The notes below the pieces were generated by a model. It had not been told where the DNA came from. It saw nothing but the letters and a program-made list of their open reading frames with translations, and searched no databases. DNA of 64,000 bases from an uncultured Gemmatimonadaceae bacterium. GTDB lineage: Bacteria > Gemmatimonadota > Gemmatimonadetes > Gemmatimonadales > Gemmatimonadaceae. The stretch covers positions 1-64,000 of the forward strand of contig CAWAGQ010000007.1 of assembly GCA_963781585.1 (NCBI GenBank), in the 5' to 3' direction. Shown in pieces: positions 37,373 through 50,804 of the stretch (position 1 is the first letter of the stretch; each line of letters starts with the position of its first letter). The position numbers and the translations under genes were made by a program.

Positions 37373-37702
37373 ATGAGCATCCTCGAATACCATGTGCTGT
37401 TGGCGCTCGCAAGCAGTCCGCTCTACGGGTATGCCATCAAGGACGCCGTGGCTACGGAGTCCGCAGGCACGCTGACCCCCCGTGCAGGCTCACTCTACCG
37501 CGTACTCGCTCGACTGATGACCTCCGGACTGGTTTCCGAGACCACGCCGGCTGACATGCCTCCGCCCCACCCGGGTCACGCGCGGAAATACTACGGACTG
37601 ACCGGAGCCGGGCGCAGGGCACTCACTGCCGAGGCTCGGCGGCTGAAGCGCACCGCCACGGTCGCCGAAAAGCGACTCGGCGTGGCCCAGGGCCGCCCGT
37701 GA
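37373..37702 (+). CDS. PadR family transcriptional regulator
   Basis: VLLALA...YGYAI...AGSLYRVLARL...RKYYGLTGAG; GTGA overlap with the permease gene. Confidence 0.9.
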   Translation: MSILEYHVLLALASSPLYGYAIKDAVATESAGTLTPRAGSLYRVLARLMTSGLVSETTPADMPPPHPGHARKYYGLTGAGRRALTAEARRLKRTATVAEKRLGVAQGRP

Positions 37703-40359
37703 GATCTGTGCTGACTCTGCTGGTGCGACTGTTCCCGTCTGCGTTCCGGGAGCAGTTCGGCGCGGGGATCACCGAGCAGGTCGAGCGCGACTATGACCGC
37801 GCGCGGTCGCGCGGATTCCCGGCGGCGCTCTGGTGCACGCTTGTCACGGCGCTGGATCTCGTTCGATCGGCCGTCGCCGAGCGATGGAGTCCCACCTGGG
37901 TGAGCGCACCTCCGCCTACGATGAAGGAGAGGAATATGCGGTCGACCCTGAGTGAATGGGCACGGGACCTGCGCCACGCGTCGCGCTCGCTCAGGCGATC
38001 TCCCGGATTCGCGGCGGTGACGATCGGAACCCTCGGCCTCGCGATCGGCGCCAATGCGGGCATGTTCAGCGTGGTCGATGCCGTCCTGTTGAAGCCTCTG
38101 CCATACGGCCACGCCGATCGACTCGTATACATCGCGGCCTCCGCACCGGGTTCCGATTTCCCCGCGGAGTTCGGCGTGTCGTCCGAGTTCTACGTGCAGT
38201 ACAAGGAGCAGTCGCGTCTGCTCGAGGACGTCTCGACGTTCAACTCGTTCACCAACACGCTGCGCGCGGGCGACCGTGTGGAGCGCGTCCGGATGTCGTG
38301 GCCCACGAACTCGCTGTTCTCGACGCTTGGCGCGAAGCCGATCCTCGGTCGGCTGCCGGTGGCGGACGATGGGAGCCGCGTTGCCGTGATCAGCTACGCA
38401 CTCTGGACGACGTGGTTCGGCCGCGACTCGGCGGTCATTGGGCGGTCGTACGAGATGGGTGGCGCTCCCCGAACCGTGATCGGCGTGATGGGACCGGAGT
38501 TCCGCTTCCCCAACGACGGCACGCTCCTCTGGCTCTCGAGTGAAATCACTGGCGACTCGATCGTCCCGGGTCGGTTCGGGACATCGCTCGTGGGTCGGAT
38601 GAAGCCGGGCGTCACCACCGAGACACTGGCGAAGGAACTCACCACGCTGTCCAGGCGCCTGCCGGAGCGCTTCGGCGGATCGCCGGCGTACGCGCGCCTG
38701 ATTTTGCAGCACCGCGCCGTCGTGCGCCCGCTCGAGGAGCAGCTCCTGGGTCGCGTTGCCTCTCCGCTCTGGGTGCTGGTTGGGGCGGTCGGCTTTGTCC
38801 TGCTGATTGCGTGTGCCAACGTGGCGAACCTGTTCGTGGTGCGCGCCGAGGGGCGGCAGCGCGATCTGGCCGTGCGTCGCGCCATCGGAGCTGCCAGAGG
38901 GCAACTCATCCGCCTGCAGATCTCGGAAGCGGTCGTGGTCGCGACGTTCGCGGGCGTCTTCGCCGTGATGTTCGCGATCGCGGGACTTCCGACGTTTCTC
39001 CATGCCGCGCCCGCGGGGATTCCGCGCCTCGAGGACGTGGGGATCAATGCCACGACGCTGCTGTTCACGGTGACCGCCGTGCTGCTCTCGGCCATCGCCT
39101 GCGGCATCGGTCCGGCCGTTCGGGCTTCCGCGCCGGACCTCGCGCGGCTCCGTGAAGGAGGGCGCGGCGCGACGCACCGACGAAGCTGGGCGCGTGACAG
39201 CCTGGTGATCGGGCAGACGGCGCTGGCGCTCGTGCTGCTCATCGGGTCGGGACTTCTCATCCGCAGTTTCCGTGCACTCAGCCACGTCGACCCCGGCTAC
39301 AGCACGAAGGATATCTTCACGTTCCAGATTGCGCCGGACCAGCCGCAGCTGAAGGACGGTCCATCATTCGCGCGCTTCGATCTGGATTTCGTGGATCGTC
39401 TCCGGGCGCTCCCGGGCGTGGAATCGGTAGGCCTGGTGGAGAACGTGCCGCTCAACGAGGGAACGGCGAGCGCGCATTTTCTCAGTGAAGCGATGGTCGG
39501 TGGTGACGGTGTGCTGCTGAACTACACTTTTGCCGCTGGCGACTATTTCAGGACGATGGGCATCGACCTGCTGCGCGGCAGAACGTTGGAGAGAGCCGAG
39601 GAGACGTCGTGGCGTGGGAACGTCGTCATCAGCCAGTCGGCAGCGAGGCTGCTGTGGCCCGGCGAGAATCCCATTGGCCGGCGAATGCAGCAGCGGGGAG
39701 ACTCCACATGGGTGACGGTCGCGGGCGTGGTCGAGGACGTGATGCAGTACGGCTTCCGCGACACGCCGCAGCCGCTCGTCTATCTGCCTCTCGTCGGACC
39801 CACCCCGACGAGCTGGTTCATCTCCTCGCCGGCGTATGTGGTGAAGACGCCGCGGGCCGAGCACATCGCACCCGACGTGCTCGCACTCGTGAGGCAGGTG
39901 GCGCCGGAGGCGCCGATGTACCGCATCTTCACCATGGCGGGCCTGGCGGCGGACTCGATGGTGCAGTTGTCGTTCACGATGCTGACCCTCGGCATCCTGT
40001 CCACGCTGGCGCTGATCCTCGGTGCGGTGGGACTCTACGGCGTGCTCTCGTACATCGTCACCGAGCGGACGCGGGAGATCGGTCTCCGGATGGCGCTCGG
40101 CGCCAGGGGCGAGCAGGTGCGGCGCATGGTGGTCGTGCAGGGAGCACGACTGGTCGCGGTGGGGGTGGTCCTCGGCATCGTGGTCGCCGTGGCCTCCACG
40201 CGCATCCTCGGGAGTCTGCTCTTCGGTGTCGCGGCGCTCGACACGGTTACCTTCATGGCGATGTCTGCTTCAATGGTCGCGGTCGGGCTGCTGGCGAGCT
40301 ACCTGCCGGCGCGGCGCGCGTCCAACGTAGACCCGATCGAATCGCTGCGTGGCGAGTGA
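37699..40359 (+). CDS. ADOP-type duplicated ABC permease with N-terminal extension
   Basis: About 80-aa extension (LFPSAFREQFG), then DLRHASRSLRRSPGF, two FtsX repeats and PARRASNVDP. Confidence 0.92.
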   Translation: MRSVLTLLVRLFPSAFREQFGAGITEQVERDYDRARSRGFPAALWCTLVTALDLVRSAVAERWSPTWVSAPPPTMKERNMRSTLSEWARDLRHASRSLRRSPGFAAVTIGTLGLAIGANAGMFSVVDAVLLKPLPYGHADRLVYIAASAPGSDFPAEFGVSSEFYVQYKEQSRLLEDVSTFNSFTNTLRAGDRVERVRMSWPTNSLFSTLGAKPILGRLPVADDGSRVAVISYALWTTWFGRDSAVIGRSYEMGGAPRTVIGVMGPEFRFPNDGTLLWLSSEITGDSIVPGRFGTSLVGRMKPGVTTETLAKELTTLSRRLPERFGGSPAYARLILQHRAVVRPLEEQLLGRVASPLWVLVGAVGFVLLIACANVANLFVVRAEGRQRDLAVRRAIGAARGQLIRLQISEAVVVATFAGVFAVMFAIAGLPTFLHAAPAGIPRLEDVGINATTLLFTVTAVLLSAIACGIGPAVRASAPDLARLREGGRGATHRRSWARDSLVIGQTALALVLLIGSGLLIRSFRALSHVDPGYSTKDIFTFQIAPDQPQLKDGPSFARFDLDFVDRLRALPGVESVGLVENVPLNEGTASAHFLSEAMVGGDGVLLNYTFAAGDYFRTMGIDLLRGRTLERAEETSWRGNVVISQSAARLLWPGENPIGRRMQQRGDSTWVTVAGVVEDVMQYGFRDTPQPLVYLPLVGPTPTSWFISSPAYVVKTPRAEHIAPDVLALVRQVAPEAPMYRIFTMAGLAADSMVQLSFTMLTLGILSTLALILGAVGLYGVLSYIVTERTREIGLRMALGARGEQVRRMVVVQGARLVAVGVVLGIVVAVASTRILGSLLFGVAALDTVTFMAMSASMVAVGLLASYLPARRASNVDPIESLRGE

Positions 40360-40449: not shown

Positions 40450-41535
40450 TCAGGAGTTGAGGCCGACGTAGGTGAAGACGAGGAGGAAGGCGATCGTGGC
40501 GAAGCCGGCGATACGCCAGGTCGGGCGGTACGCTCCGTCTTCTCCCGGCTTGTCGAGGAAAGGGATGAAGATGAGCAGCGAGGCGACGAGGCTGAACGCC
40601 ACGATTCCGAAGGCATCGCCATCGAGGCCGAGCACCTTGGCGGGGAGGTACTTCAGCATCTGGTACGGCGCCATGAAGTACCACTCGGGCTTGATACCAG
40701 CGGGGGCCGGACTGAACGGGTCGGCTTTCGTCCCGAGTTCGCCGGGGAAAAACACCGCGAGCGCGGCGATGGTGCCGAGGGCGAGGAGCCACCCGATGAG
40801 GTCGTGGAGCAGAAAGTTCGGCACGAACGGCACGGAGCGCGGCGCGCCCTTGCGCTCCACGCCCGGCGGCACGCTCATCCCGAGACGTTGCACCAGCAGG
40901 ACGTGTATCCCGAGAAACAGGAACGTGAGGCCCGGCAGCAGCGATGTGTGGAGCGCGTAGAAGCGGGTGAGTGTCGCGCCGGTCACGTCTGTCCCGCCCC
41001 GCAGCATGCGTTCGATGAATGGACCGATGCCGGGAACCACGCCGGCCATCGACGTGCCCACCCGCGTCGCGAAATAGGAGAGCGTGTTCCACGGCAGCAG
41101 ATAGCCGGTGAACCCGAGGCCGAGGGTGAGGCCGAGCAGGCCGAGGCCGCTCAGCCAGGTCAGCTCGCGGGGCGCGCGGTAGGCCTTCAGGATCCACACG
41201 CTGAACAGATGAATGAACAGCACGAAGATCATCAGGTTGGCGCCCCAGACGTGGATGGAGCGGATCAGCCATCCGAACTTGGCCTGCGTCATGAGGAACT
41301 GGACCGACTCGTACGCTTCGCCGGCGCTGGGCCGGTAGTAGAAGAGCATGAGGATGCCGGTACAGACCTGAATGACGAACAGGAACAGCACCATCCCGCC
41401 CAGGAAATACCAGACGCTGTGGCGGTGGACCGGCACCCGTTTCTTGTGGATGAGCGGGAGCACGTCGCTCATTCCGATGCGATCGTCGAGCCAGGTCCAG
41501 AGGCGGGCTCCGCGGCCGGCTGGTGGCTCGCCCAT
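40450..41535 (-). CDS. Cytochrome b subunit of a Rieske/cytochrome b (bc-type) complex
   Basis: Four heme-b His (IRSIH...FIHLF; YALH...GIHVL), GFTGYLLPW and the Qo motif KPEWYF. Confidence 0.95.
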
Positions 41536-41537
41536 CG

Positions 41538-41966
41538 TCAGGCTTCCTTGTTCACGACGATCTGGTCGCCGCGCACGTTCACGGCATACGGCGTGAGCGG
41601 CCTTGGCGGCGGCCCGGAGACGTTGCGGCCGTGGAGATCGTAGTGGCCGTTATGGCACGCGCACCAGATATCGGTATTCTCGGCGCTGTACTGCACGATG
41701 CAGCCGAGGTGGGTGCACACGGCAGTGAACGCGCGAACTTCGCCGGCCGAAGTCCGGATGATGAGGGCCGGCTCGTTGCCGAACTTGAAGATCTGGCCGG
41801 AGTTGGGTTTCAGATCCGACGGCTTCATCGTGAGCGTGACCGAGTTGACGGAAGACTCCCCGGCCTCGGGGGGCACGACGTAGCGAAACATCGGATAGAA
41901 CACCGCGATGAGCAGGCCACCGAACGTGGTGCCGAGCAGCCAGTCGATGAACTTCTTGCGGGTCAT
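41538..41966 (-). CDS. Rieske [2Fe-2S] subunit
   Basis: CTHLGC, CACHNG and GPPPRPL; Tat-like anchor MTRKKFI. An alternative coupled TTG start lies at 42074. Confidence 0.93.
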
Positions 41967-42070
41967 GGCGGTCGGGTGCGGAGTGGTGTGTCGAAGCGGA
42001 TCTGCCGAGCCGCGGAGCGTTAGGCGGTCTTCGTGAGCGGCCGGACGCGCGTCACCCTCGGCCCCCGGCG

Positions 42071-43423
42071 TCAACGGGTCCTCTTTCCAGTCGTGACATG
42101 CTCGTCCTCCTCGTCGCGCTGCTCGGCCTCGATCATGCGGAGCCGGAGCCAGAGGGTGCCAGCGAGTCCGAGAATGATAGGCACGGAGATGGCCAGGCCG
42201 AGGCGCCGATACCGGTGTTCCGCGAGCGCGGCCTGGCCCTGACCGGCCGCCCCGGTGGCGGTCTTCAGGCCGACCGCGACCTGTTTCGCCACCGTATCCG
42301 CCCGGAACGAATGGACCGCGGTGCGCGCCTTCGTCAGTGCGGTGGTCACTTCGCTCAGATCGAACTGTGCCTGGCTCACGTCCATGCCCAGGTTGTTGGC
42401 CTCGTCGAGTACGTTCTGGCTGTGCTCCTGCGCCGTGCGCAACGAATCGAGCAGCGTCCGCATGGCGAGGAACTGGCGGCCGGCAGGAGTGTCGGCGTCG
42501 TGACACCGCTGACACACCGTGTGTGCGCGCGCGGTCAACGTCGTCTCCGCCGGCTGCACGATGTCGTGATTGCTGTGACAGGTGACGCACCCCGGAAGCT
42601 TGTTAGCCGTGAAGATGCTGTCGTGTCCGTTGGCGGCAAAGTAGTCGGCGACGGTCGAGTGGCACTGGCTGCAGACGTGGGGCACGTCCGCCACGCCTGG
42701 CGGGGTGGCGCCATGATTGCCGTGACAACTGTTGCAGACCGGCGCCGAAAGGTCGCCCTGCTTCAGCATGTCCTGGCCATGCACGCTCTCCGTCCACAGC
42801 CTCTGCTGGTTCGTCGGAATGTCGTAGCGCGCCATGCGCTTCGAATCCGAGTGGCAGCGGCCGCAGGTCTCGGGCACGTGCGTCGGGTACACGGAGGACG
42901 CCGGATCGGACGGCGGCAGGATGCGGTGCGCGGGGTGGCAGTCGATACAGGTCGCGACCGACGTGTCGCCATATTCGAGCAGCCGCTTGCCGTGCACGGA
43001 GGTGCGATACTCCGCCACCTGGTCCACGCGCAGCATCGGGTTGAAGCGCTTCATGAACCCGGCATCGGAGTGGCAGCGGCCGCACAGGATGGGGATGTCG
43101 CGACGGGCCGGCTTGGCCAGGAAACCCGCGCCCGGGGTGATGTTGCGCGGATCGTCGCCATGCTGCGTGACGTTGCCATGGCAGTCGAGGCAGCTGAAGC
43201 CCTTCTGCGCATGGATGTCGGTTTCGAAGTTCTTCGCCGGGGCCGACAACCGCTCATCCCGCTGCTTGAGGTGGCAGTCAATGCAAACCTGCGAGCTCGG
43301 TAGCTGCTGCGCCCATGCGCCCGCCGGGGCGGCCAGCAGCGCGACGAGCGTCAGCAGTGCCGGCGCGCGCACCAGCGCACGCGCTGCCCCCCGCCTCGTG
43401 ATTCGCACGCGGGGGCTACGCAC
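42071..43423 (-). CDS. Nonaheme cytochrome c with signal peptide, helical stalk and C-terminal membrane anchor
   Basis: Nine CXXCH motifs, AWA|QQ signal cleavage and C-terminal TM LGLAISVPIILGLAGTLWL. GTG start at 43423 or 43408. Confidence 0.88.
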   Translation of the reverse strand: MRSPRVRITRRGAARALVRAPALLTLVALLAAPAGAWAQQLPSSQVCIDCHLKQRDERLSAPAKNFETDIHAQKGFSCLDCHGNVTQHGDDPRNITPGAGFLAKPARRDIPILCGRCHSDAGFMKRFNPMLRVDQVAEYRTSVHGKRLLEYGDTSVATCIDCHPAHRILPPSDPASSVYPTHVPETCGRCHSDSKRMARYDIPTNQQRLWTESVHGQDMLKQGDLSAPVCNSCHGNHGATPPGVADVPHVCSQCHSTVADYFAANGHDSIFTANKLPGCVTCHSNHDIVQPAETTLTARAHTVCQRCHDADTPAGRQFLAMRTLLDSLRTAQEHSQNVLDEANNLGMDVSQAQFDLSEVTTALTKARTAVHSFRADTVAKQVAVGLKTATGAAGQGQAALAEHRYRRLGLAISVPIILGLAGTLWLRLRMIEAEQRDEEDEHVTTGKRTR

Positions 43424-44885
43424 CAGGGACCTTCGTGTGACAGAGCAGGCAGCTCTGCGGATTGCGCTGCTGCGCCCGCTTGGCATCGAAGCCGGCAGGG
43501 TGCGGATTGATTCCCCAGCCGCCGGTGGCGGAATGACACTGCGCGCAGCTGGCCTGCGTGTGACAGGCGGCGCAGGCCTCGAGCCCCTGCCGAGCGGCCT
43601 GGCCGTGGTTGAGCAGCCAGAGCGGCTGCGCGCTGTGGAACGGCGCGTTGGTGCGCGTGCGCGCGCCGTTTCCTGTCCGCATGTGACACGTGCGGCAGAA
43701 CGCTTCGGTGCTGTGACAGGCTGTGCACTGCGCGTCGCTGCCATAGGCCTCCGGACCGTGCTGCTCGACGAAGTTCGGCGGATGGTACTGTGCCTTCTGG
43801 CCCTGGTGACAGTCGACGCAGAAGCTGCGGGCGTGGCAGGCGGCACATGCGCCGCCTGCTGCGGCTTGGGCGGGGTGGTCTTTCAGGAATCCGGTTGCGT
43901 GAACCGGCCGCTGTGGGATATGCACCCCGAAAAGGGTGTCGGCTCCCGGCGCCGGCAGCGCGTCGATGGCCGGTGTCACGCCTGAGCGATGACAGGTCCG
44001 ACAACTCGCCTGGACGTGACAGTTGCTGCACGTTCTGGTGGCCGCCACAACGCCGCCCGTGCCGACCCCGCCACCACCGGCGACAGTACCGTGTTTCCAC
44101 TGCCACGTACCGGTGTCGTGGCTCGCCGGCTTCGGGTACGATGGCGCGCGTCCGCGCACCAGCGCGGCGATGCGGTCGTCGGGTTCGAGCGCGCGGATGG
44201 CCGGAATCGTGGCGGCATTGAAATGACAGCGCTGGCAGCTCTCCCGCGCGTGGCAGATGGCGCAGCGGCCAGTCGCGATGCCCGGAGTGGAAGGTGCGTG
44301 CTGCATCACCCAGTCGGGCGCCGCATGGTCGGTCGGTTTTGGCAGCATCTCGACTCGAAAAGCAGGCAACCGGGTGCGGACGAGTGCGACGTGGCACGTG
44401 GCGCAGCGCGCCGCCGTGTCCGTGTGCTCGGGAGCCGCATGCGCGTGGCATCCGATGCAATACTGTGGTTGAGGCCCGCTCACTGCCATTGCGCTCGTGT
44501 CTCCCGGCGTGCGGTGACAATCGAGACAGGTCAGCCGATCGCCGGCAGAGTCGATCGACTGTTGATGCCGCACGTGCGAGTAGGCCAGGTTGGAGATCCG
44601 TGGCGTCGGGCCCATCCAGCTCACAGGCGGCTGCACCGTGCCGTCGTGACAGTTCGCGCAGGCGCCGGACGGCGGGAACATCCTGGCCGTGTCGCCCGTC
44701 GGCACACCGGAATGGCACGTGGCGCACTGGGTAAACAACCCCGCGTGCCGGCGGTGTGGAAACTGCGGCGTTGCCGGCTGGGCATACGCGTCGGTCGCCC
44801 GGCCTGGCGCAAAGGGAGCCGTCTGCGCGGTAACGGTGACGAGGAGACCTATCAGGAGCGGTGAAGCGAGAGCAGCGACTCGCAT
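43416..44885 (-). CDS. 16-heme periplasmic cytochrome c
   Basis: Sixteen CXXCH motifs; Sec signal from ATG 44885 with AGGAGG RBS and TGATG coupling. Confidence 0.9.
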   Translation of the reverse strand: MRVAALASPLLIGLLVTVTAQTAPFAPGRATDAYAQPATPQFPHRRHAGLFTQCATCHSGVPTGDTARMFPPSGACANCHDGTVQPPVSWMGPTPRISNLAYSHVRHQQSIDSAGDRLTCLDCHRTPGDTSAMAVSGPQPQYCIGCHAHAAPEHTDTAARCATCHVALVRTRLPAFRVEMLPKPTDHAAPDWVMQHAPSTPGIATGRCAICHARESCQRCHFNAATIPAIRALEPDDRIAALVRGRAPSYPKPASHDTGTWQWKHGTVAGGGGVGTGGVVAATRTCSNCHVQASCRTCHRSGVTPAIDALPAPGADTLFGVHIPQRPVHATGFLKDHPAQAAAGGACAACHARSFCVDCHQGQKAQYHPPNFVEQHGPEAYGSDAQCTACHSTEAFCRTCHMRTGNGARTRTNAPFHSAQPLWLLNHGQAARQGLEACAACHTQASCAQCHSATGGWGINPHPAGFDAKRAQQRNPQSCLLCHTKVPGA

Positions 44886-46414
44886 CACATTCCTCCTGGC
44901 GCCGGCAACCCTGGCTCGGCGCCAAGGGCCCAGGTGCATGTGATGGTGGCGCGCAGCTGGCTCCAGTTCGGTCCGTTCTCCGGGACCCTTCCCACGTGTC
45001 GGTAATCGAAGACGGACGCGTTCAGCCGGCTGCGACTATTTAGGCGCAGTGCGCCATCCAGTCCTATTCCCACCACCGTGCCACTGCGCACACGCAGCTC
45101 GTCGGCTGTCTGGAAGGCCGTGCCGCTGAGGGCGACGGAATTGCCGTCCGCGAGGGAGCGACGCAACTGCAGACCTGCCCGGCTCCTCGCGGTGCCGAAA
45201 CCCAGGTCGAGACCGTACTGCGCATCCACGGCCCATTGCGGAGCGAGGCGGACCGCGCCGGAGCCGTTGAGCGACCACCCGCTGGAGTGCAGCGGTGCGA
45301 AGTCGACGGCGACGTCGGTATCGAGGTAGTGGCGGCGTGAGACCTGGCCGTCGAACGTGACCGCGCCGTCGCCGCGGCGCCAGCTCGCACCCGCTCCGCC
45401 GTCGACGTAGCCGACGGCGCCGAACGCGCCCCAGATGGTCCACAGATCGAAGTACGGCCGGTGTCGGCGGGCGAAGGCACGGACGGTCACACGCGGGTTG
45501 AGCGTGTAGTGAAACTGTCCGCGCAGCTCGTTCAGATCGGCCGTCGCCAGGTCGAGTTGAGCTGCCCAGTCGAACGACATCCGGTCGCCACGGAGCATTC
45601 CGTTCGTTGCCGCCCGCTCCGAATAGAGTCCGTTGCGATTCGCCGCAATGGTGCGCTCGTAGACGCCGGACAGCGACAGCGCCGGGACCGGCCGCGCCTG
45701 CGCGCGCAAGCCGAGAAGCACACCGCGCGACTCCGGGGCAAATGGCTCGACGGCCGCCAGGGCGCCACTGGTCACCGGCTCGTTGAGCCCGTTCTCCAGG
45801 GTCCATCCGCCGTACGCTTCGACGCTCAGCGCCCTCGTCGGGCGCAGCAGCACCGACGCGCCGTCGAAGTTGTTGAATGTCAGCCCGCTCACGTCCCACT
45901 GCCGGCCGGCACGCACGCGATACCGTGGGCGCTCCAGTTCGAGGTAGGCCTCCAGGGCGTCGAAATGGTCGTTGGCCTGCGGCCAGAGACTGTTGCTTCC
46001 TGCAACGACGGCCCGGCCGCGAACGTCGGCGTAGAAACGTACACCGCGTCCAAACCCCCACGCGCTCACGCGCAGATCCTGGAGCGCCGGTGCGGAGGAG
46101 GCCGTGGTTCCGCTCCCGTATACGTAGCAGTACGGCGCCGGATCGACGCACTCGACCGTGCGCCCGTCGGGGGCGCGGCGCAGCAGCGCATCACCCGTTG
46201 TGGTGGACGACAACACACTGTCGATCCGCAGCGGTCGCAGCTCCACGTAGTTCATGGTGGTGGTACCGCTGATCCGGACATGCTGTGCATCCACCCGCCG
46301 CGCGGAGACCAGCAAGGTGCTGAGGAGCGCGGCCACGAGCGTCCCGCGTGCGCGGAGCGACGCGCGACGCGCATCGATATCGAATCGAACGTCGAGAGGG
46401 CGCCGGGAATTCAT
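44885..46414 (-). CDS. Predicted outer-membrane beta-barrel (porin) of a porin-cytochrome module
   Basis: Signal peptide, many alternating amphipathic strands (EAYLELE, YRVRAGRQW, LSVEAYGGW, final LRATITCTWALG), no heme motif; translationally coupled between multiheme genes. Confidence 0.75.
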   Translation of the reverse strand: MNSRRPLDVRFDIDARRASLRARGTLVAALLSTLLVSARRVDAQHVRISGTTTMNYVELRPLRIDSVLSSTTTGDALLRRAPDGRTVECVDPAPYCYVYGSGTTASSAPALQDLRVSAWGFGRGVRFYADVRGRAVVAGSNSLWPQANDHFDALEAYLELERPRYRVRAGRQWDVSGLTFNNFDGASVLLRPTRALSVEAYGGWTLENGLNEPVTSGALAAVEPFAPESRGVLLGLRAQARPVPALSLSGVYERTIAANRNGLYSERAATNGMLRGDRMSFDWAAQLDLATADLNELRGQFHYTLNPRVTVRAFARRHRPYFDLWTIWGAFGAVGYVDGGAGASWRRGDGAVTFDGQVSRRHYLDTDVAVDFAPLHSSGWSLNGSGAVRLAPQWAVDAQYGLDLGFGTARSRAGLQLRRSLADGNSVALSGTAFQTADELRVRSGTVVGIGLDGALRLNSRSRLNASVFDYRHVGRVPENGPNWSQLRATITCTWALGAEPGLPAPGGM

Positions 46415-47286
46415 CGGGACGCACCCCCGGTCTGATTGGCCGAACCCTGGGGCGGTTGGAGCATGTGGCACCGGGCGCAGACCCGGCCCGGTTCATGGTT
46501 TACCCGGTCCGCATGGCAAAGGAGACATTCATCGCGCGACAGCGTGGCAACCTTCACTGGAGCGTTCTGGTGACATCCCGAGCCCGCGCACCCGTTGTGA
46601 GCGGCGTTGGTATGAACGCCGGCCGGCGGTGGTTGGTGGCAGGTGCGACAGTTGGCCTGGCCTTCGTGGTGCACGTGGCAGGATCCGCAGGCCTTCGTCG
46701 GCACGAGTTGCGGCTGGTTGATGTGGCAGTCCGAGCACTGCACGCTCGTGTGCCATCCGTGGTCGAAGGTCACGCTTCGCTGCCGCGGCGTGGGCCACAC
46801 CGACAGTTTCCATTCGAGATTGAGCGTCACGGGCCCGCGGCTCGCGGGCGCGGCATGGCAGCTCATGCACGGTCGTCCTTGCGCTGTGGCGTGATGGCAG
46901 CCGGCGCACTGATCCCCTGCGGGTGGCGGGCCCGTGGCGGGTACCGGGGCGTGGCATGACGTGCAGGCCACATTCGTGTGTGCCGCATGTCCCGGTACCG
47001 CGGCGTGGCAGCGCACGCATTGGAGGCTCCGGTGCTTCTCGTGCCGGAAGGCGTACGGACCCAGGGAAACGGCTACCCGAGAAGCCCGGGTCAAGGCGCT
47101 GGTTGGGACGGTCGGAGGCTGCGAGGAGGCGGCGGACGAGTCCACGGCCGTGGAGTCCCCCGAGGCGGCCATCCCTGAATCCCCGGCCGCCTGCTCGGGC
47201 GCCCGCGAGCATGAGAGAACCGCGACGGCCAGCATCAGCCAGCAGGAAACAACCCGCACAGACCCCTCGAGTCTGGTCCCGGGCAT
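46411..47286 (-). CDS. Multiheme cytochrome c lipoprotein (9 CXXCH + 1 CX4CH)
   Basis: VLSC lipobox, Ser/Ala-rich tether, dense heme motifs. Confidence 0.88.
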   Translation of the reverse strand: MPGTRLEGSVRVVSCWLMLAVAVLSCSRAPEQAAGDSGMAASGDSTAVDSSAASSQPPTVPTSALTRASRVAVSLGPYAFRHEKHRSLQCVRCHAAVPGHAAHTNVACTSCHAPVPATGPPPAGDQCAGCHHATAQGRPCMSCHAAPASRGPVTLNLEWKLSVWPTPRQRSVTFDHGWHTSVQCSDCHINQPQLVPTKACGSCHVHHEGQANCRTCHQPPPAGVHTNAAHNGCAGSGCHQNAPVKVATLSRDECLLCHADRVNHEPGRVCARCHMLQPPQGSANQTGGASR

Positions 47287-47314
47287 TAATAAGGATCGGC
47301 GCGTCCGCGCGCCA

Positions 47315-48763
47315 TCAAGGCGCTATTCTCCTGGCCGGGAGAATGTTCTCGAGCGTGATGCCGGCGACCGCCGGGATGCCATAGCTCTTCTGGAGCTGCT
47401 TGATGCTGGCGGTGAGCAGTGCCTCCATCAGGAATGGATTGTGGACCGGCGAGCCGGCCATGGCGCCGAGGGCAGCATTGAACTTGGCTCCTTCGCCAGG
47501 GGTGATCACGCTGTCCGTATTGACGAACGCCGATTTGGGCACCTGCGCCAACATGGCGTTGACCTCTTGCACCAGCAGGGAGATGCGCTCGGTGGCCACC
47601 TCCTTGGCGTTGCGGGCCACGCTCTGGTCGCCGTGACAGCCGCTCCTGGCGCAGGCGGCGAAGCTGCGCTGCGACTCGTCGCAGCCCTCGTCGACCGTGG
47701 GCTTGCCAGTGGCGTCGAGGCAGGGAATGGGCACGAAGAGGTGACCTGTGGAGTTGAACACCACCGCCCCGCTCGCGTCCTTCACATCCATGCGTGCCAC
47801 ATGACAGGTGACGCACAAATCCTCGTTGCGCGAGGAGCCGTGGGTTCCGTGGATCGTCGTGTCAACGGGCCCGAAGTCCGGCGATCGCCAGCCGGCCGAG
47901 CCGAGGAGGAGGGGACCCTGCGGCGACATCGGTCCGCGCTGGTTCGCGGCGATGTCCGGCTGGGAGCGATAGTGGTGGCACTTCATGCACAGGTTGTCGC
48001 TGACGCTTGCCACCGTAATCGGGTAGCGCAGTTGCTTGTCATTGGTCGCGTCGTGGGGATCGTGGCATACCCCGCACACGATGGGCATGTGACCAGCAAC
48101 GGCAGCCAGGCTGTCCTGCTCGGCGTATCGCACGTCGGCGCCCCACGCCTGCAGTGCGCCGTTGCCGGTGTGGCAGTCACGGCACGGCTCGTTTACCCCT
48201 GCGCTGCTGCTTGCGCGCGGCACCAGGCCGTGCGCCGACTGCGACCACTCCTCCAGGAACGGATACTGCGCGGTCTGATGGCACTCGCCGCAGCCGTTGG
48301 TGAGTGATTGCCCCACGAACATGGAGGCGAGCGGCTGCGAGACGTCAGGGTTCGTCACATGCGTCAGCCCCGGACCATGGCAGGATTCGCACTGGACATC
48401 CTGATAACGGGCGTTGCGCGTCGCCGTCCAACCGACGTTTGCGTCCGTCACGAAGTTCCCGTTGGCGTTCACGGTGTGGCATCCTTCACAGGCCGCCGAC
48501 GACATCCCGCTGTTTCGCAGATCCGTCCAGGCGTGGGAGTGCGCGGTCTGCTTCCACTCGCCGAGCTTGCCGATGTGACAATTTCCGCACACCGGCGTGC
48601 GCGCCGCGGTGTCCGAGAAGCCGAGGAACCCCTGCGCGGCCTCCGGCGGAGAATTCGCGGACGAATTCGGCGCGACGATCTGCGTCTTGTCCACGCAGGC
48701 AGCGACAGCGAGCGTCAGGATCACGACTGCCGAGAAGCGATTCACCCTGTTCTGCACATCCAT
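47315..48763 (-). CDS. Multiheme cytochrome c lipoprotein (8 CXXCH + 1 CX4CH), c554-like N-terminus
   Basis: VAAC lipobox, VQCESCHGPG, CGVCHDPH and C-terminal helices with VHNP; GGAGG RBS before ATG 48763. Confidence 0.88.
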   Translation of the reverse strand: MDVQNRVNRFSAVVILTLAVAACVDKTQIVAPNSSANSPPEAAQGFLGFSDTAARTPVCGNCHIGKLGEWKQTAHSHAWTDLRNSGMSSAACEGCHTVNANGNFVTDANVGWTATRNARYQDVQCESCHGPGLTHVTNPDVSQPLASMFVGQSLTNGCGECHQTAQYPFLEEWSQSAHGLVPRASSSAGVNEPCRDCHTGNGALQAWGADVRYAEQDSLAAVAGHMPIVCGVCHDPHDATNDKQLRYPITVASVSDNLCMKCHHYRSQPDIAANQRGPMSPQGPLLLGSAGWRSPDFGPVDTTIHGTHGSSRNEDLCVTCHVARMDVKDASGAVVFNSTGHLFVPIPCLDATGKPTVDEGCDESQRSFAACARSGCHGDQSVARNAKEVATERISLLVQEVNAMLAQVPKSAFVNTDSVITPGEGAKFNAALGAMAGSPVHNPFLMEALLTASIKQLQKSYGIPAVAGITLENILPARRIAP

Positions 48764-49232: not shown

Positions 49233-50804
49233 TCAGGGCAGCACCGGCGTCGGGTGCTCCGTCGACGCAATGAAGTCCGCGATGTCCTTCTTGAGCTTCT
49301 TCGCCGACGACTGGTTGAGATACGCCATGTGGCCGCTCTCGTAGTACGCGAACTTCACCCGATCCGAATACGTCTTGTCGAAGCCAAGGTGCCTGAAGGT
49401 GTACTCGGCGCCCGCAAACGGGGTCGCCATGTCGTAGTAGCCCGCGCCCACCATCACGTGCAGGTAGGGGTCCTTGGCCATCGCGGTCCGCAGTGATTCG
49501 ACCTCGCTGGCGTAGCCCCCGCCAAAGCTGGCCGTCGTGTACTCCCAGCGACCCGTGTGGCCGCCCATGTAGTATTGCAGGTCGCTGGAGTATCCGAGAT
49601 CGTCGTGGAGATAGCGCATGAACGCCGACATGAACGCGCCCGACGGCGCCACGTCGGACGGATCGTAATCCTGTCGCTGACTGGCGGCGTTGCCGTTGAT
49701 GCCGATCATGCGGCTGTCATAGCGCCCCACGGTTTCACGCTGCTCGCGCAGCAACTCGGTCCGGTACGTGCCGGCGTCGATGCGCAGGTTGGTGTTCAGG
49801 ATGTACTGCTGCGACACCCCCGTGAGCTGCGCGATCTTCCCTGCGGTGGCCGTCCGCTCCGCAGGCGTCATCGCGTTGCCCCTGGCCAGCGCGGTCAGGT
49901 AATCGCCGAACGCGAAGTCCCGGGCCTGCTGCAATGCCTGCTCGAGGCTCAACTTCTGCAGGTCGGCGGGGAGTTTCTTGTGATACCAGGCGGTCGCGGT
50001 GTACGTCGGAAGAAAGGTGGCGAAGGCAAGATCGTTGTTAGGCGACTGGGCGATGGTCTGGAAGTCGAGCACCGTGCCGAGCAGCATGATTCCATTCAGC
50101 TCGATCCCCTCGTTGCTCTGCAGCTCCGACGCCAGCCCCGCCGATCGGAAGGTGCCATAACTCTCGCCGAACAGGTACTTCGGCGACGCCCAGCGCTGGT
50201 ACTTGTCCAGGTAGTTCCGGATGAATTCGCCGAACATCGCGATGTCGTTGCGATCGCCGGTGTAGTCGCTGGCCTTCACCCCCGGCCCCGGGCGGGAATA
50301 GCCCGTCATCATCGCGTCGACCTGAACGAGGTCGGTCACGTCGAGCGGCGAGTACGGATTGGTGGTGAGGTTGTAGGGGGGAGCCGGCTGCGTGCCGTTG
50401 GGGCCCATGTCCGGGTGCATCGGACTCATGATGCCCATGTCGAGCCAGATGGACGCCGAGCCCGGGCCACCGTTGTAGAAGAAGGTGACGGGACGGGTGG
50501 CTGCATTCTCTCCATCGCGTGTGTAGGAGATGTAGAACACCGTGGCCTTGGGTTTCCCGTCCGCGTCATGCAGAACCATACTGCCCGTGTGGGCGGTGTA
50601 CGCGATCTCCTTGCCGTCGATGGTGATCTTGTGCTGCGTGGTCGACACCTTCTCCACGGCGCGAACGCCCTCTGCGGCTCCCGAGTCGGACGGGGGAGCG
50701 CCGCCGCGACCGCCGGGGCCCCCCGGCGTTGGGCGCTGGGCCGGAACGGGCCCGACGGCAAGGAATGAAGTGGCGACGCCGAGCAGAAGCAGTCGAACGT
50801 GCAT
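49233..50804 (-). CDS. Serine carboxypeptidase (peptidase S10), secreted
   Basis: NGGPGSAS, GESYG, YYDMATP and SGHM; GGAGG RBS. Confidence 0.92.
   Translation of the reverse strand: MHVRLLLLGVATSFLAVGPVPAQRPTPGGPGGRGGAPPSDSGAAEGVRAVEKVSTTQHKITIDGKEIAYTAHTGSMVLHDADGKPKATVFYISYTRDGENAATRPVTFFYNGGPGSASIWLDMGIMSPMHPDMGPNGTQPAPPYNLTTNPYSPLDVTDLVQVDAMMTGYSRPGPGVKASDYTGDRNDIAMFGEFIRNYLDKYQRWASPKYLFGESYGTFRSAGLASELQSNEGIELNGIMLLGTVLDFQTIAQSPNNDLAFATFLPTYTATAWYHKKLPADLQKLSLEQALQQARDFAFGDYLTALARGNAMTPAERTATAGKIAQLTGVSQQYILNTNLRIDAGTYRTELLREQRETVGRYDSRMIGINGNAASQRQDYDPSDVAPSGAFMSAFMRYLHDDLGYSSDLQYYMGGHTGRWEYTTASFGGGYASEVESLRTAMAKDPYLHVMVGAGYYDMATPFAGAEYTFRHLGFDKTYSDRVKFAYYESGHMAYLNQSSAKKLKKDIADFIASTEHPTPVLP

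Follow-up and report, generated by a model that had tools for sequence, protein, structure and literature searches.

Can a Q-cycle complex pass electrons straight to a conduit through the outer membrane? This question is raised by a seven-gene operon in a 64,000-nucleotide stretch of DNA (the window: positions 1 to 64,000 of contig CAWAGQ010000007.1, assembly GCA_963781585.1) from an uncultured Gemmatimonadaceae bacterium, a host that the labels of homologues also place in Gemmatimonadota. The genes, here called A to G, encode two multihaem lipoproteins (A and B), an outer-membrane β-barrel (C), two further multihaem cytochromes (D and E), a Rieske protein (F) and a cytochrome b (G), and their coordinates are collected in Table 1. 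The conserved operon is real, and its sequences and structure models indicate that it probably passes respiratory electrons outward through about 44 haems.

The operon and its conservation

The original prediction, made from the letters of the window and a list of open reading frames (ORFs), had described these protein types in one order, and the ORF, motif and Pfam analyses reproduce it: ORFs A to G stand seven in a row on the minus strand from 48763 to 40450. An exact recount returns the predicted 42 CXXCH and 2 CX4CH haem motifs, distributed as 8 + 1 in A, 9 + 1 in B, 16 CXXCH in D and 9 in E, with none in C, F and G. Residue-shuffled versions of A, B, D and E carry a mean of 0.03-0.14 motifs and a maximum of 3 per protein (2000 shuffles), and 42 of the 47 CXXCH motifs in all six frames of the whole window sit in these four ORFs. 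The tight junctions also match the listing: 28 bp for A/B, ATGA for B/C, TGATG (or GTGA) for C/D and 2 bp for F/G, the D/E gap being 7 bp to the GTG at 43408 rather than about 8 bp. Two starts had been proposed for the Rieske gene. The ATG at 41966, which leaves a gap of 104 bp after E, is retained, and the TTG at 42074 is rejected, as homologues align from the twin-arginine-like N-terminus at the former. The G+C content at third codon positions (GC3) is 0.78-0.88 in all seven genes, which is of the coding type, and ratios of nonsynonymous to synonymous substitution rates (dN/dS) of 0.07-0.26 against a same-genus genome point to purifying selection; the ratio for B comes from 241 codons only, the same-genus copy of B apparently being split.

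Barrels of the C family are present in 182 of 401 Gemmatimonadota genomes. Of 80 related loci, 26 show the exact order A-B-C-D-E-F-G (25 of the 61 in which the sequence runs on for 3.5 kb or more past D, plus L056), a share that is inflated because the 80 were picked out of 439 as those most like the query alignment. Across the 401 genomes, an even sample from which only part of the candidates was fetched, this order is confirmed in five genomes, the host's own included. The predicted union of a conduit and an intact Rieske/cytochrome b complex in one conserved operon is borne out. D follows C in 78 of the 80 loci, and the other two stop at contig ends. In each of 40 further loci, which were chosen from long contigs, C is followed by a match to the D profile (the 16-haem form or a shorter relative, some split or with 12 haems); half of these loci are divergent, and four appear to repeat earlier ones. 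Seen from the inner side, the best 42 matches to E in the 401 genomes have a C-family barrel within 10 kb in 22 cases and within 25 kb in 31, as tallied from the coordinates.

In a quick version of the barrel tree, the barrels linked to E-F-G form one branch of 30 rows that spans several families, with a Shimodaira-Hasegawa-like approximate likelihood ratio test (SH-aLRT) value of 99; the frameshifted L063 was excluded from the E-F-G label. Adjacency of module and conduit has been regained in other gene orders in L146, L147, L148 and L151. In another class of the phylum (L168, L169, L170 and L174), one operon contains a distant barrel-like protein, 11- and 14-haem genes, and the inner genes in the order F-G-E; hhalign relates this barrel to C with an E value of 4e-4, and one homologue is labelled Glassbacteria. 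We also note that a nine-haem protein with a sorting domain of the type IX secretion system (T9SS) type adjoins the operon in these four loci. Such counts demonstrate conservation and are not proof of function, since the kin are not independent.

Table 1. Features of the operon (positions within the window)
Feature	Position	Strand	Description	Basis
Gene A	47315..48763	-	Nine-haem lipoprotein, OcwA/OmhA-like fold, candidate surface terminal reductase	Motif count, profile, model
A/B-gap hairpin	47297..47314	-	7-bp hairpin, weak T tail	Terminator-like site scan
Gene B	46411..47286	-	Ten-haem class III (c3/c7-like) lipoprotein, tether of ~60 residues	Motifs, PF02085, lipobox
Gene C	44885..46414	-	Predicted 22-strand outer-membrane barrel, plug-free, no named family	AlphaFold2 model
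Gene D	43416..44885	-	Sixteen-haem exported cytochrome, predicted all bis-His wire	Motifs, invariant His
Gene E	42071..43408	-	Nine-haem cytochrome, C-terminal membrane anchor, putative cytochrome c1/f stand-in	Motifs, hydrophobic segment
Gene F	41538..41966	-	Rieske [2Fe-2S] protein, probably of low-potential type	PF00355 over cut-off
Gene G	40450..41535	-	Fused cytochrome b (b6 + subunit IV type)	PF00033 + PF00032

The barrel, the haem wire and the candidate surface cytochrome

The AlphaFold2 model of C, built from 113 sequences with a predicted local distance difference test (pLDDT) score of 89.8, agrees with the β-barrel that had been expected of this gene. It has 22 barrel strands, counted by hand from the DSSP list, and no plug, and its small β-rich first loop contains two invariant cysteines. 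Its match to TonB-dependent receptors is confined to their barrel part (PirA: Z 19.3, root-mean-square deviation (rmsd) 4.1, 356 residues aligned). Occ porins of 18 strands score near those of 22 strands in the fold searches, which recover generic barrels only and do not fix the strand count. C belongs to no Pfam or NCBIfam family, none of 25 homologues is in NCBIfam while Pfam gave only three weak or partial porin matches for them, and the barrel profile found no solved relative among Protein Data Bank (PDB) sequences. A search of the ESM Atlas returned unnamed Gemmatimonadota clusters. MtrB appears at rank 40 of the Foldseek list with an rmsd of 20 and lies outside the top 50 VIA rows, from which no exclusion follows. 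The modelled lumen would accommodate a haem chain, and the candidate for this chain is D, in which 16 further histidines are invariant in 69 of 69 rows; together with its 16 CXXCH motifs, these fit a pure bis-His wire. The N-terminal part of D resembles HmcA/c7.

The family profile of A matches OmhA (6QVM, E 7e-21) and OcwA (6I5B, E 3e-15), and the model of A (pLDDT 84.8) matches OcwA with Z 16.6 and rmsd 3.5 over 329 aligned residues (Foldseek E 3e-7); the next-best match has Z 11.5, and nitrite reductases reach 11.5 or less. OcwA and OmhA are cell-surface cytochromes of Gram-positive metal reducers, and OcwA acts in iron reduction (PMC9250108). They share with A the nine haems and the fold with its C-terminal helical bundle. 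A has seven invariant extra histidines, which fits the pattern described for OcwA, where seven haems are six-coordinate and two are open (PMC6703420). The differences are an identity of about 20-23%, the absence from A of the His-His pairs over the open haems, and the setting of A as a lipoprotein of a two-membrane bacterium beside a barrel. A lipobox is present in 61 of 64 homologues, and the fold and the lipobox make A a candidate for exposure on the cell surface. GspE/PilB-like ATPases in the genome fall below the cut-off for the type II secretion system (T2SS).

The lysine-ligated catalytic haem motif of NrfA and octahaem nitrite reductase (ONR), CXXCK, occurs in 0 of 65 A rows and in none of the seven operon genes. 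In a profile alignment mapped with an offset of +29, the distal His-His pairs of OcwA fall on Gln143-Tyr144 and Met256-Ser257 of A, and all 65 rows have Ser or Ala at position 257, where the haem-5 pair has its second histidine. The lack of both features argues against a small-molecule enzyme. In 14 of 65 homologues, among which 12 are copies from E-F-G operons, residue 256 of the mature alignment is Met instead of the His that lies above one open haem. This may reflect shared ancestry of those copies, and a Met at this place could raise the potential of the haem.

The inner module and the genome around it

B exceeds the cut-off of PF02085 with 44 bits. Its lipobox is found at 22 of 26 loci with E-F-G and at 5 of 41 other loci, where B is often a 20-haem form, and genome G003 holds B-E-F-G without A, C and D (L164). 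By the lipobox bias and the stand-alone B-E-F-G, B is probably part of the inner, Rieske-containing module and serves it as a tethered periplasmic shuttle. The proposal that the gene order mirrors the path from the outside to the quinone pool is not upheld in its simple form, as B segregates with E-F-G and not with the barrel. E has one C-terminal hydrophobic segment. Among the 120 E matches listed, one long match carries PF01292, which does not establish homology of E with the haem domain of CbcL. Many longer homologues of E (L043, L045, L048, L050, L055; P0308-P0346) bear an added TerB domain (PF05099).

F is alignable with the Rieske proteins of cytochrome b6f, and each of its 27 operon copies has an N-terminal anchor and both 2Cys-2His ligand boxes with their disulfide cysteines. 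The hydrogen-bonding Ser is replaced by Gly here and is absent from all 27 copies, whereas the Tyr is kept in 21. Loss of this Ser lowered the potential of the yeast Rieske protein by 130 mV (PMC12954380). Because the potential-raising Ser is missing, we estimate that F probably lies at about +100 to +170 mV and is of the low-potential, menaquinol type. The haem ligands of G, His 95, 109, 196 and 211, are invariant in 27 of 27 copies, and the quinol-site motif is PEWY in 26 and PDWY in one. The haem-ci cysteine of helix A in b6f is absent from G, with Phe or Tyr at this position in 27 of 27. By these alignments, F and G retain every Q-cycle residue of a quinol oxidase.

The genome contains futalosine-pathway genes for menaquinone. 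Its other cytochrome b locus (G000:C7:445050-454000; L001:7052-15988) has a Rieske-like gene without Fe-S ligands and a cytochrome b without PEWY, so the operon holds the only intact Rieske/b complex of the genome; this second bc-like cluster also has 9-, 21-, 12- and 11-haem genes, and a clade II nosZ lies about 5 kb away. A second A-C-D copy of 39-46% identity, without B or E-F-G, is located at G000:C10:123288-128134 (L002:7292-12135). It is directly preceded by ccmB, C, E and F, which supply the cytochrome c maturation genes that were expected elsewhere in the genome. Also present are clade II NosZ, a cluster like alternative complex III (ACIII), two haem-copper oxidases, a NiFe hydrogenase and a NirK-like gene below cut-off. 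NrfA, NapA, MtrB and RuBisCO were not found in the assembly, which is 93.5% complete.

Comparison with known systems

The pairing of a porin-cytochrome conduit with a Rieske/cytochrome b complex is not new in kind (PMC3903129, PMC13264449, PMC5877670). The Mtr cluster of Zixibacteria RBG-1 likewise unites a porin-cytochrome pair, further multihaem proteins and PetAB (Rieske/cytochrome b) (Castelle et al. 2013, PMC3903129); it has MtrA and MtrB homologues and, as described in the accessible part of that report, no extracellular cytochrome, whereas the present operon has a 22-strand barrel of no named family, a 16-haem wire and an OcwA-like lipoprotein. A 2026 paper on karst metagenome-assembled genomes (MAGs) names four MAGs whose porin-cytochrome clusters include petB and petC, one of them Gemmatimonadales SAW209 (PMC13264449), and this or a sister cluster may already have been drawn there for SAW209. 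Its accessible text treats the pairing in a single sentence, besides a figure, and neither defines a family nor gives a mechanism. The co-occurrence of petB and petC is ascribed there to PCC4; the word Rieske is absent from the accessible text of the source that defines PCC4. PCC3 and PCC4 (He et al. 2017) have a five-helix inner-membrane protein, and PCC4 has 4-, 5- and 10-haem cytochromes, in contrast to the PF00033/PF00032 cytochrome b and the 9-, 10-, 16- and 9-haem proteins found here.

The extHIJKLMNOPQS cluster of Geobacter shares the porin, several multihaem proteins, a Rieske protein, a cytochrome b and an operon-like arrangement (PMC5877670). It differs in ExtI, for which 12 strands are predicted, in its link to selenite and tellurite, in a short-form cytochrome b, and in rhodanese and selenoprotein genes, neither of which occurs in the seven-gene operon. 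Searches for orthologues of its proteins gave 201 against a cut-off of 290 for ExtP, 23 against 800 for ExtM, and no match for ExtI, ExtKL and ExtN. Shewanella MtrCAB (6R2Q) and Geobacter OmbB-OmaB-OmcB or ExtABCD have the working plan that is predicted here, with a barrel, a threaded wire and a surface lipoprotein cytochrome; they reach the quinones through CymA, ImcH or CbcL (PMC6295460), while here a Rieske/b complex is adjacent. The original prediction did not recognize the subunits as MtrABC orthologues, and this judgement is upheld: no MtrB family is assigned, A scores 34 bits against a cut-off of 192 for the MtrA/DmsE decahaem family TIGR03508, and B, D and E are unmatched. The MtrB/PioB barrel PF11854 has no match in the genome, a search in which the control set gave one sub-cut-off match only. 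Neither C nor its 25 homologues match NCBIfam, and the barrel profile matches no PDB sequence; these searches, which had no OmbB sequence for direct comparison, leave C as a possible relative of the OmbB-type porins. By the features compared, the operon is of the kind predicted to work like a porin-cytochrome conduit and stands outside the Mtr, Ext, PCC3 and PCC4 families.

Rieske/cytochrome b pairs that lack a class I c1, and for which multihaem proteins are the proposed acceptors, are also described in Caldithrix (PMC5317091) and anammox bacteria (PMC12954380); those complexes feed periplasmic Nap and Hao, and the neighbour here is an outer-membrane conduit. A Gemmatimonas MAG with an mto-like system was noted earlier (PMC6137239), and OcwA-like cytochromes occur in porin clusters of peat Acidobacteriota and Verrucomicrobiota (bioRxiv 10.64898/2026.05.27.727921). 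Literature searches, whose coverage largely left out subscription journals, found no study of this barrel family, operon or Gemmatimonadota system, and the accessible parts of PMC7399161, PMC11237511, PMC11495043 and PMC11492766 contain nothing on this Gemmatimonadota system.

Proposed electron transfer and competing explanations

The explanation that we favour, if by a modest lead over even chances, is an outward, energy-conserving chain for extracellular electron transfer. Cofactor residues and folds are given by sequence or model, and we infer the partner contacts, the localisation and the direction. Menaquinol would be oxidized at the PEWY site of G. One electron would be recycled via the b haems and contribute to the proton motive force, while the other would pass from the Rieske protein F to E, to the tethered B, to D threaded in C, and through the surface cytochrome A to a high-potential acceptor outside the cell. 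The plug-free barrel, the constant adjacency of C and D, the 16 invariant further histidines of D, the OcwA-like A, the intact Q-cycle residues and the menaquinone genes support this chain. So do the barrels near most of the best E matches, the single tree branch of E-F-G-linked barrels, the operon of the other class, and the standing of this Rieske/b complex as the only intact one of the genome; the failure to find RuBisCO favours respiration over lithoautotrophy. Only acceptors of fairly high potential are plausible because F is of the low-potential type without Ser; likely ones would be Mn oxides, chelated or fresh Fe(III), oxidized humics or a poised electrode, and not crystalline Fe oxides. 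This ranking follows the potentials of the acceptors. The route to insoluble acceptors put forward in the original prediction thus gains from the likeness of A to a surface Fe(III) reductase and is narrowed by the low-potential Rieske protein.

Several observations weigh against the outward chain. E-F-G is lacking at 36 of the 61 evaluable conduit loci, and 13 of the 80 loci have the conduit beside a NapA-like gene. For 11 of the 42 E matches, no barrel was located inside 25 kb or it is on a different contig; these include two clear separations (G003 and G416), one genome without a barrel match and several fragmented contigs. In G003, B-E-F-G stands more than 1 Mb from the conduit, and in G416, where E-F-G is alone, no barrel occurs within about 30 kb. 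The claim of one joined chain is supported by the conserved order found in the synteny survey and weakened by genomes in which both modules stand apart. In the Geobacter ext cluster, loss of the ExtI porin left reduction of Fe(III) citrate unaffected (PMC5877670). NosZ, the NirK-like protein, the haem-copper oxidases or ACIII could be the real electron sink.

Porin-cytochrome conduits can work in either direction, and Fe(II), reduced humics or partner cells might supply electrons through A, D and C to the N2O and oxygen reductases, or uphill via E-F-G into menaquinone. We regard such inward flow as unlikely, though the genome does offer NosZ and oxidases as high-potential sinks, 13 of 80 conduits have NapA-like neighbours, and the Met that some A homologues (14 of 65) have over the open haem could raise the potential of that haem. 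The MtrAB and PetAB cluster of Zixibacteria was interpreted as a system for Fe(II) oxidation (PMC3903129), but that interpretation relied on the missing extracellular cytochrome, whereas A resembles a surface reductase. The molybdenum-ligand loop is found in only 4 of the 13 NapA-like proteins, and a genome in which no RuBisCO was found at 93.5% completeness presents no obvious need for uphill flow.

The separations could also mean that the two modules are co-regulated and loosely coupled, B-E-F-G being a general anoxic quinol oxidase for a periplasmic pool that serves NosZ and NirK, and A-C-D being fed by other inner-membrane complexes. The occurrence of B-E-F-G (L164) and E-F-G (L158) alone agrees with this, as do the second A-C-D copy beside ccm genes and the conduits found elsewhere either without any module or beside Nap-like/NrfD modules or a clusterless bc-like module. 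The overlaps or very short gaps between genes where the modules meet, the order kept in 26 of 80 loci, the regained adjacencies, and the pairing of a distant barrel with the same module in another class make it a quite improbable account. The least probable of the three is a role in reduction or detoxification of soluble substrates (nitrite, NO, hydroxylamine, selenite or tellurite), with A as a periplasmic enzyme of the NrfA superfamily and C as a solute channel, as proposed for ExtI. A does fall within the fold family of NrfA, ONR and hydroxylamine oxidoreductase (HAO); OcwA reduces nitrite slowly and turns over hydroxylamine (PMC6703420); the ext cluster, with its porin, multihaems, Rieske protein and cytochrome b, is tied to selenite and tellurite; and some E homologues carry TerB. 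Against these stand the missing CXXCK, the lost His-His pairs with Ser or Ala throughout at position 257, the 22 strands of C against 12 predicted for ExtI, the ExtP and ExtM models under cut-off, and the long haem wire that always follows C.

Other features of the locus and its relatives

The operon is flanked by an ABC permease gene (MacB/FtsX) at 37699-40359 on the plus strand and an S10 peptidase gene at 49233-50804 on the minus strand, both apparently unrelated to it; in L035, too, a peptidase of this kind stands before the operon. The hairpin in the A/B gap may lift the level of A relative to the downstream genes. As 8 terminator-like sites were found against 3.5 in shuffles, this single hairpin is weak. 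The promoter scan detected no sigma-70-type promoter at the operon, and FNR-like boxes are no more frequent than chance would give, A having none upstream. Elsewhere in the genome, a lone eight-haem cytochrome with a tetratricopeptide repeat (TPR) tail is encoded at G000:C11:89543-91705 (L003:7550-9706).

Among the related loci, the NapA-like gene is on the same strand as the conduit in L049, L060, L068, L076, L097, L100, L106, L108, L110 and L114 and on the opposite strand in L061, L074 and L082, and these conduits mostly also have small multihaem genes and NrfC/NrfD-like genes. That the Nap-linked variants are working nitrate reductases is weakened by the scarcity of the molybdenum-ligand loop. 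In L116, L117, L118 and L124, the conduit is followed after a few kb by very large multihaem genes (19, 23 and 33-34 motifs). L155, L156, L157 and L159, with L175-L177, are redox islands of at least 30 kb that join an ACIII/Qrc-like cluster, a four-haem cytochrome, E-F-G, A and a clusterless bc-like module, and that include, where the sequence reached, a 19-haem gene, the barrel and a 12-haem gene.

Implications

The operon provides a compact seven-gene case for the open question of whether a Q-cycle complex can feed extracellular electron transfer. Quinol oxidation by a Q cycle has a higher proton yield than that by a CymA-type protein. More tentatively than the outward chain itself, we suggest a wider picture, in which a conduit with an OcwA-like surface reductase, present in nearly half of Gemmatimonadota genomes, is here fed directly by a Q-cycle complex via a nine-haem substitute for c1 and a tethered ten-haem shuttle; it would serve respiration of a mineral, humics or an electrode, tuned to high-potential acceptors with extra energy conserved at quinol oxidation. 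If the chain works as proposed, the low-potential Rieske protein predicts activity only above a threshold acceptor potential. Family-based surveys of iron genes would miss the C family because it is invisible to Pfam and NCBIfam, and the literature searches found no demonstration of such respiration in Gemmatimonadota. If the proposal is true, a widespread phylum of soils and sediments is able to respire or exchange electrons with solids.

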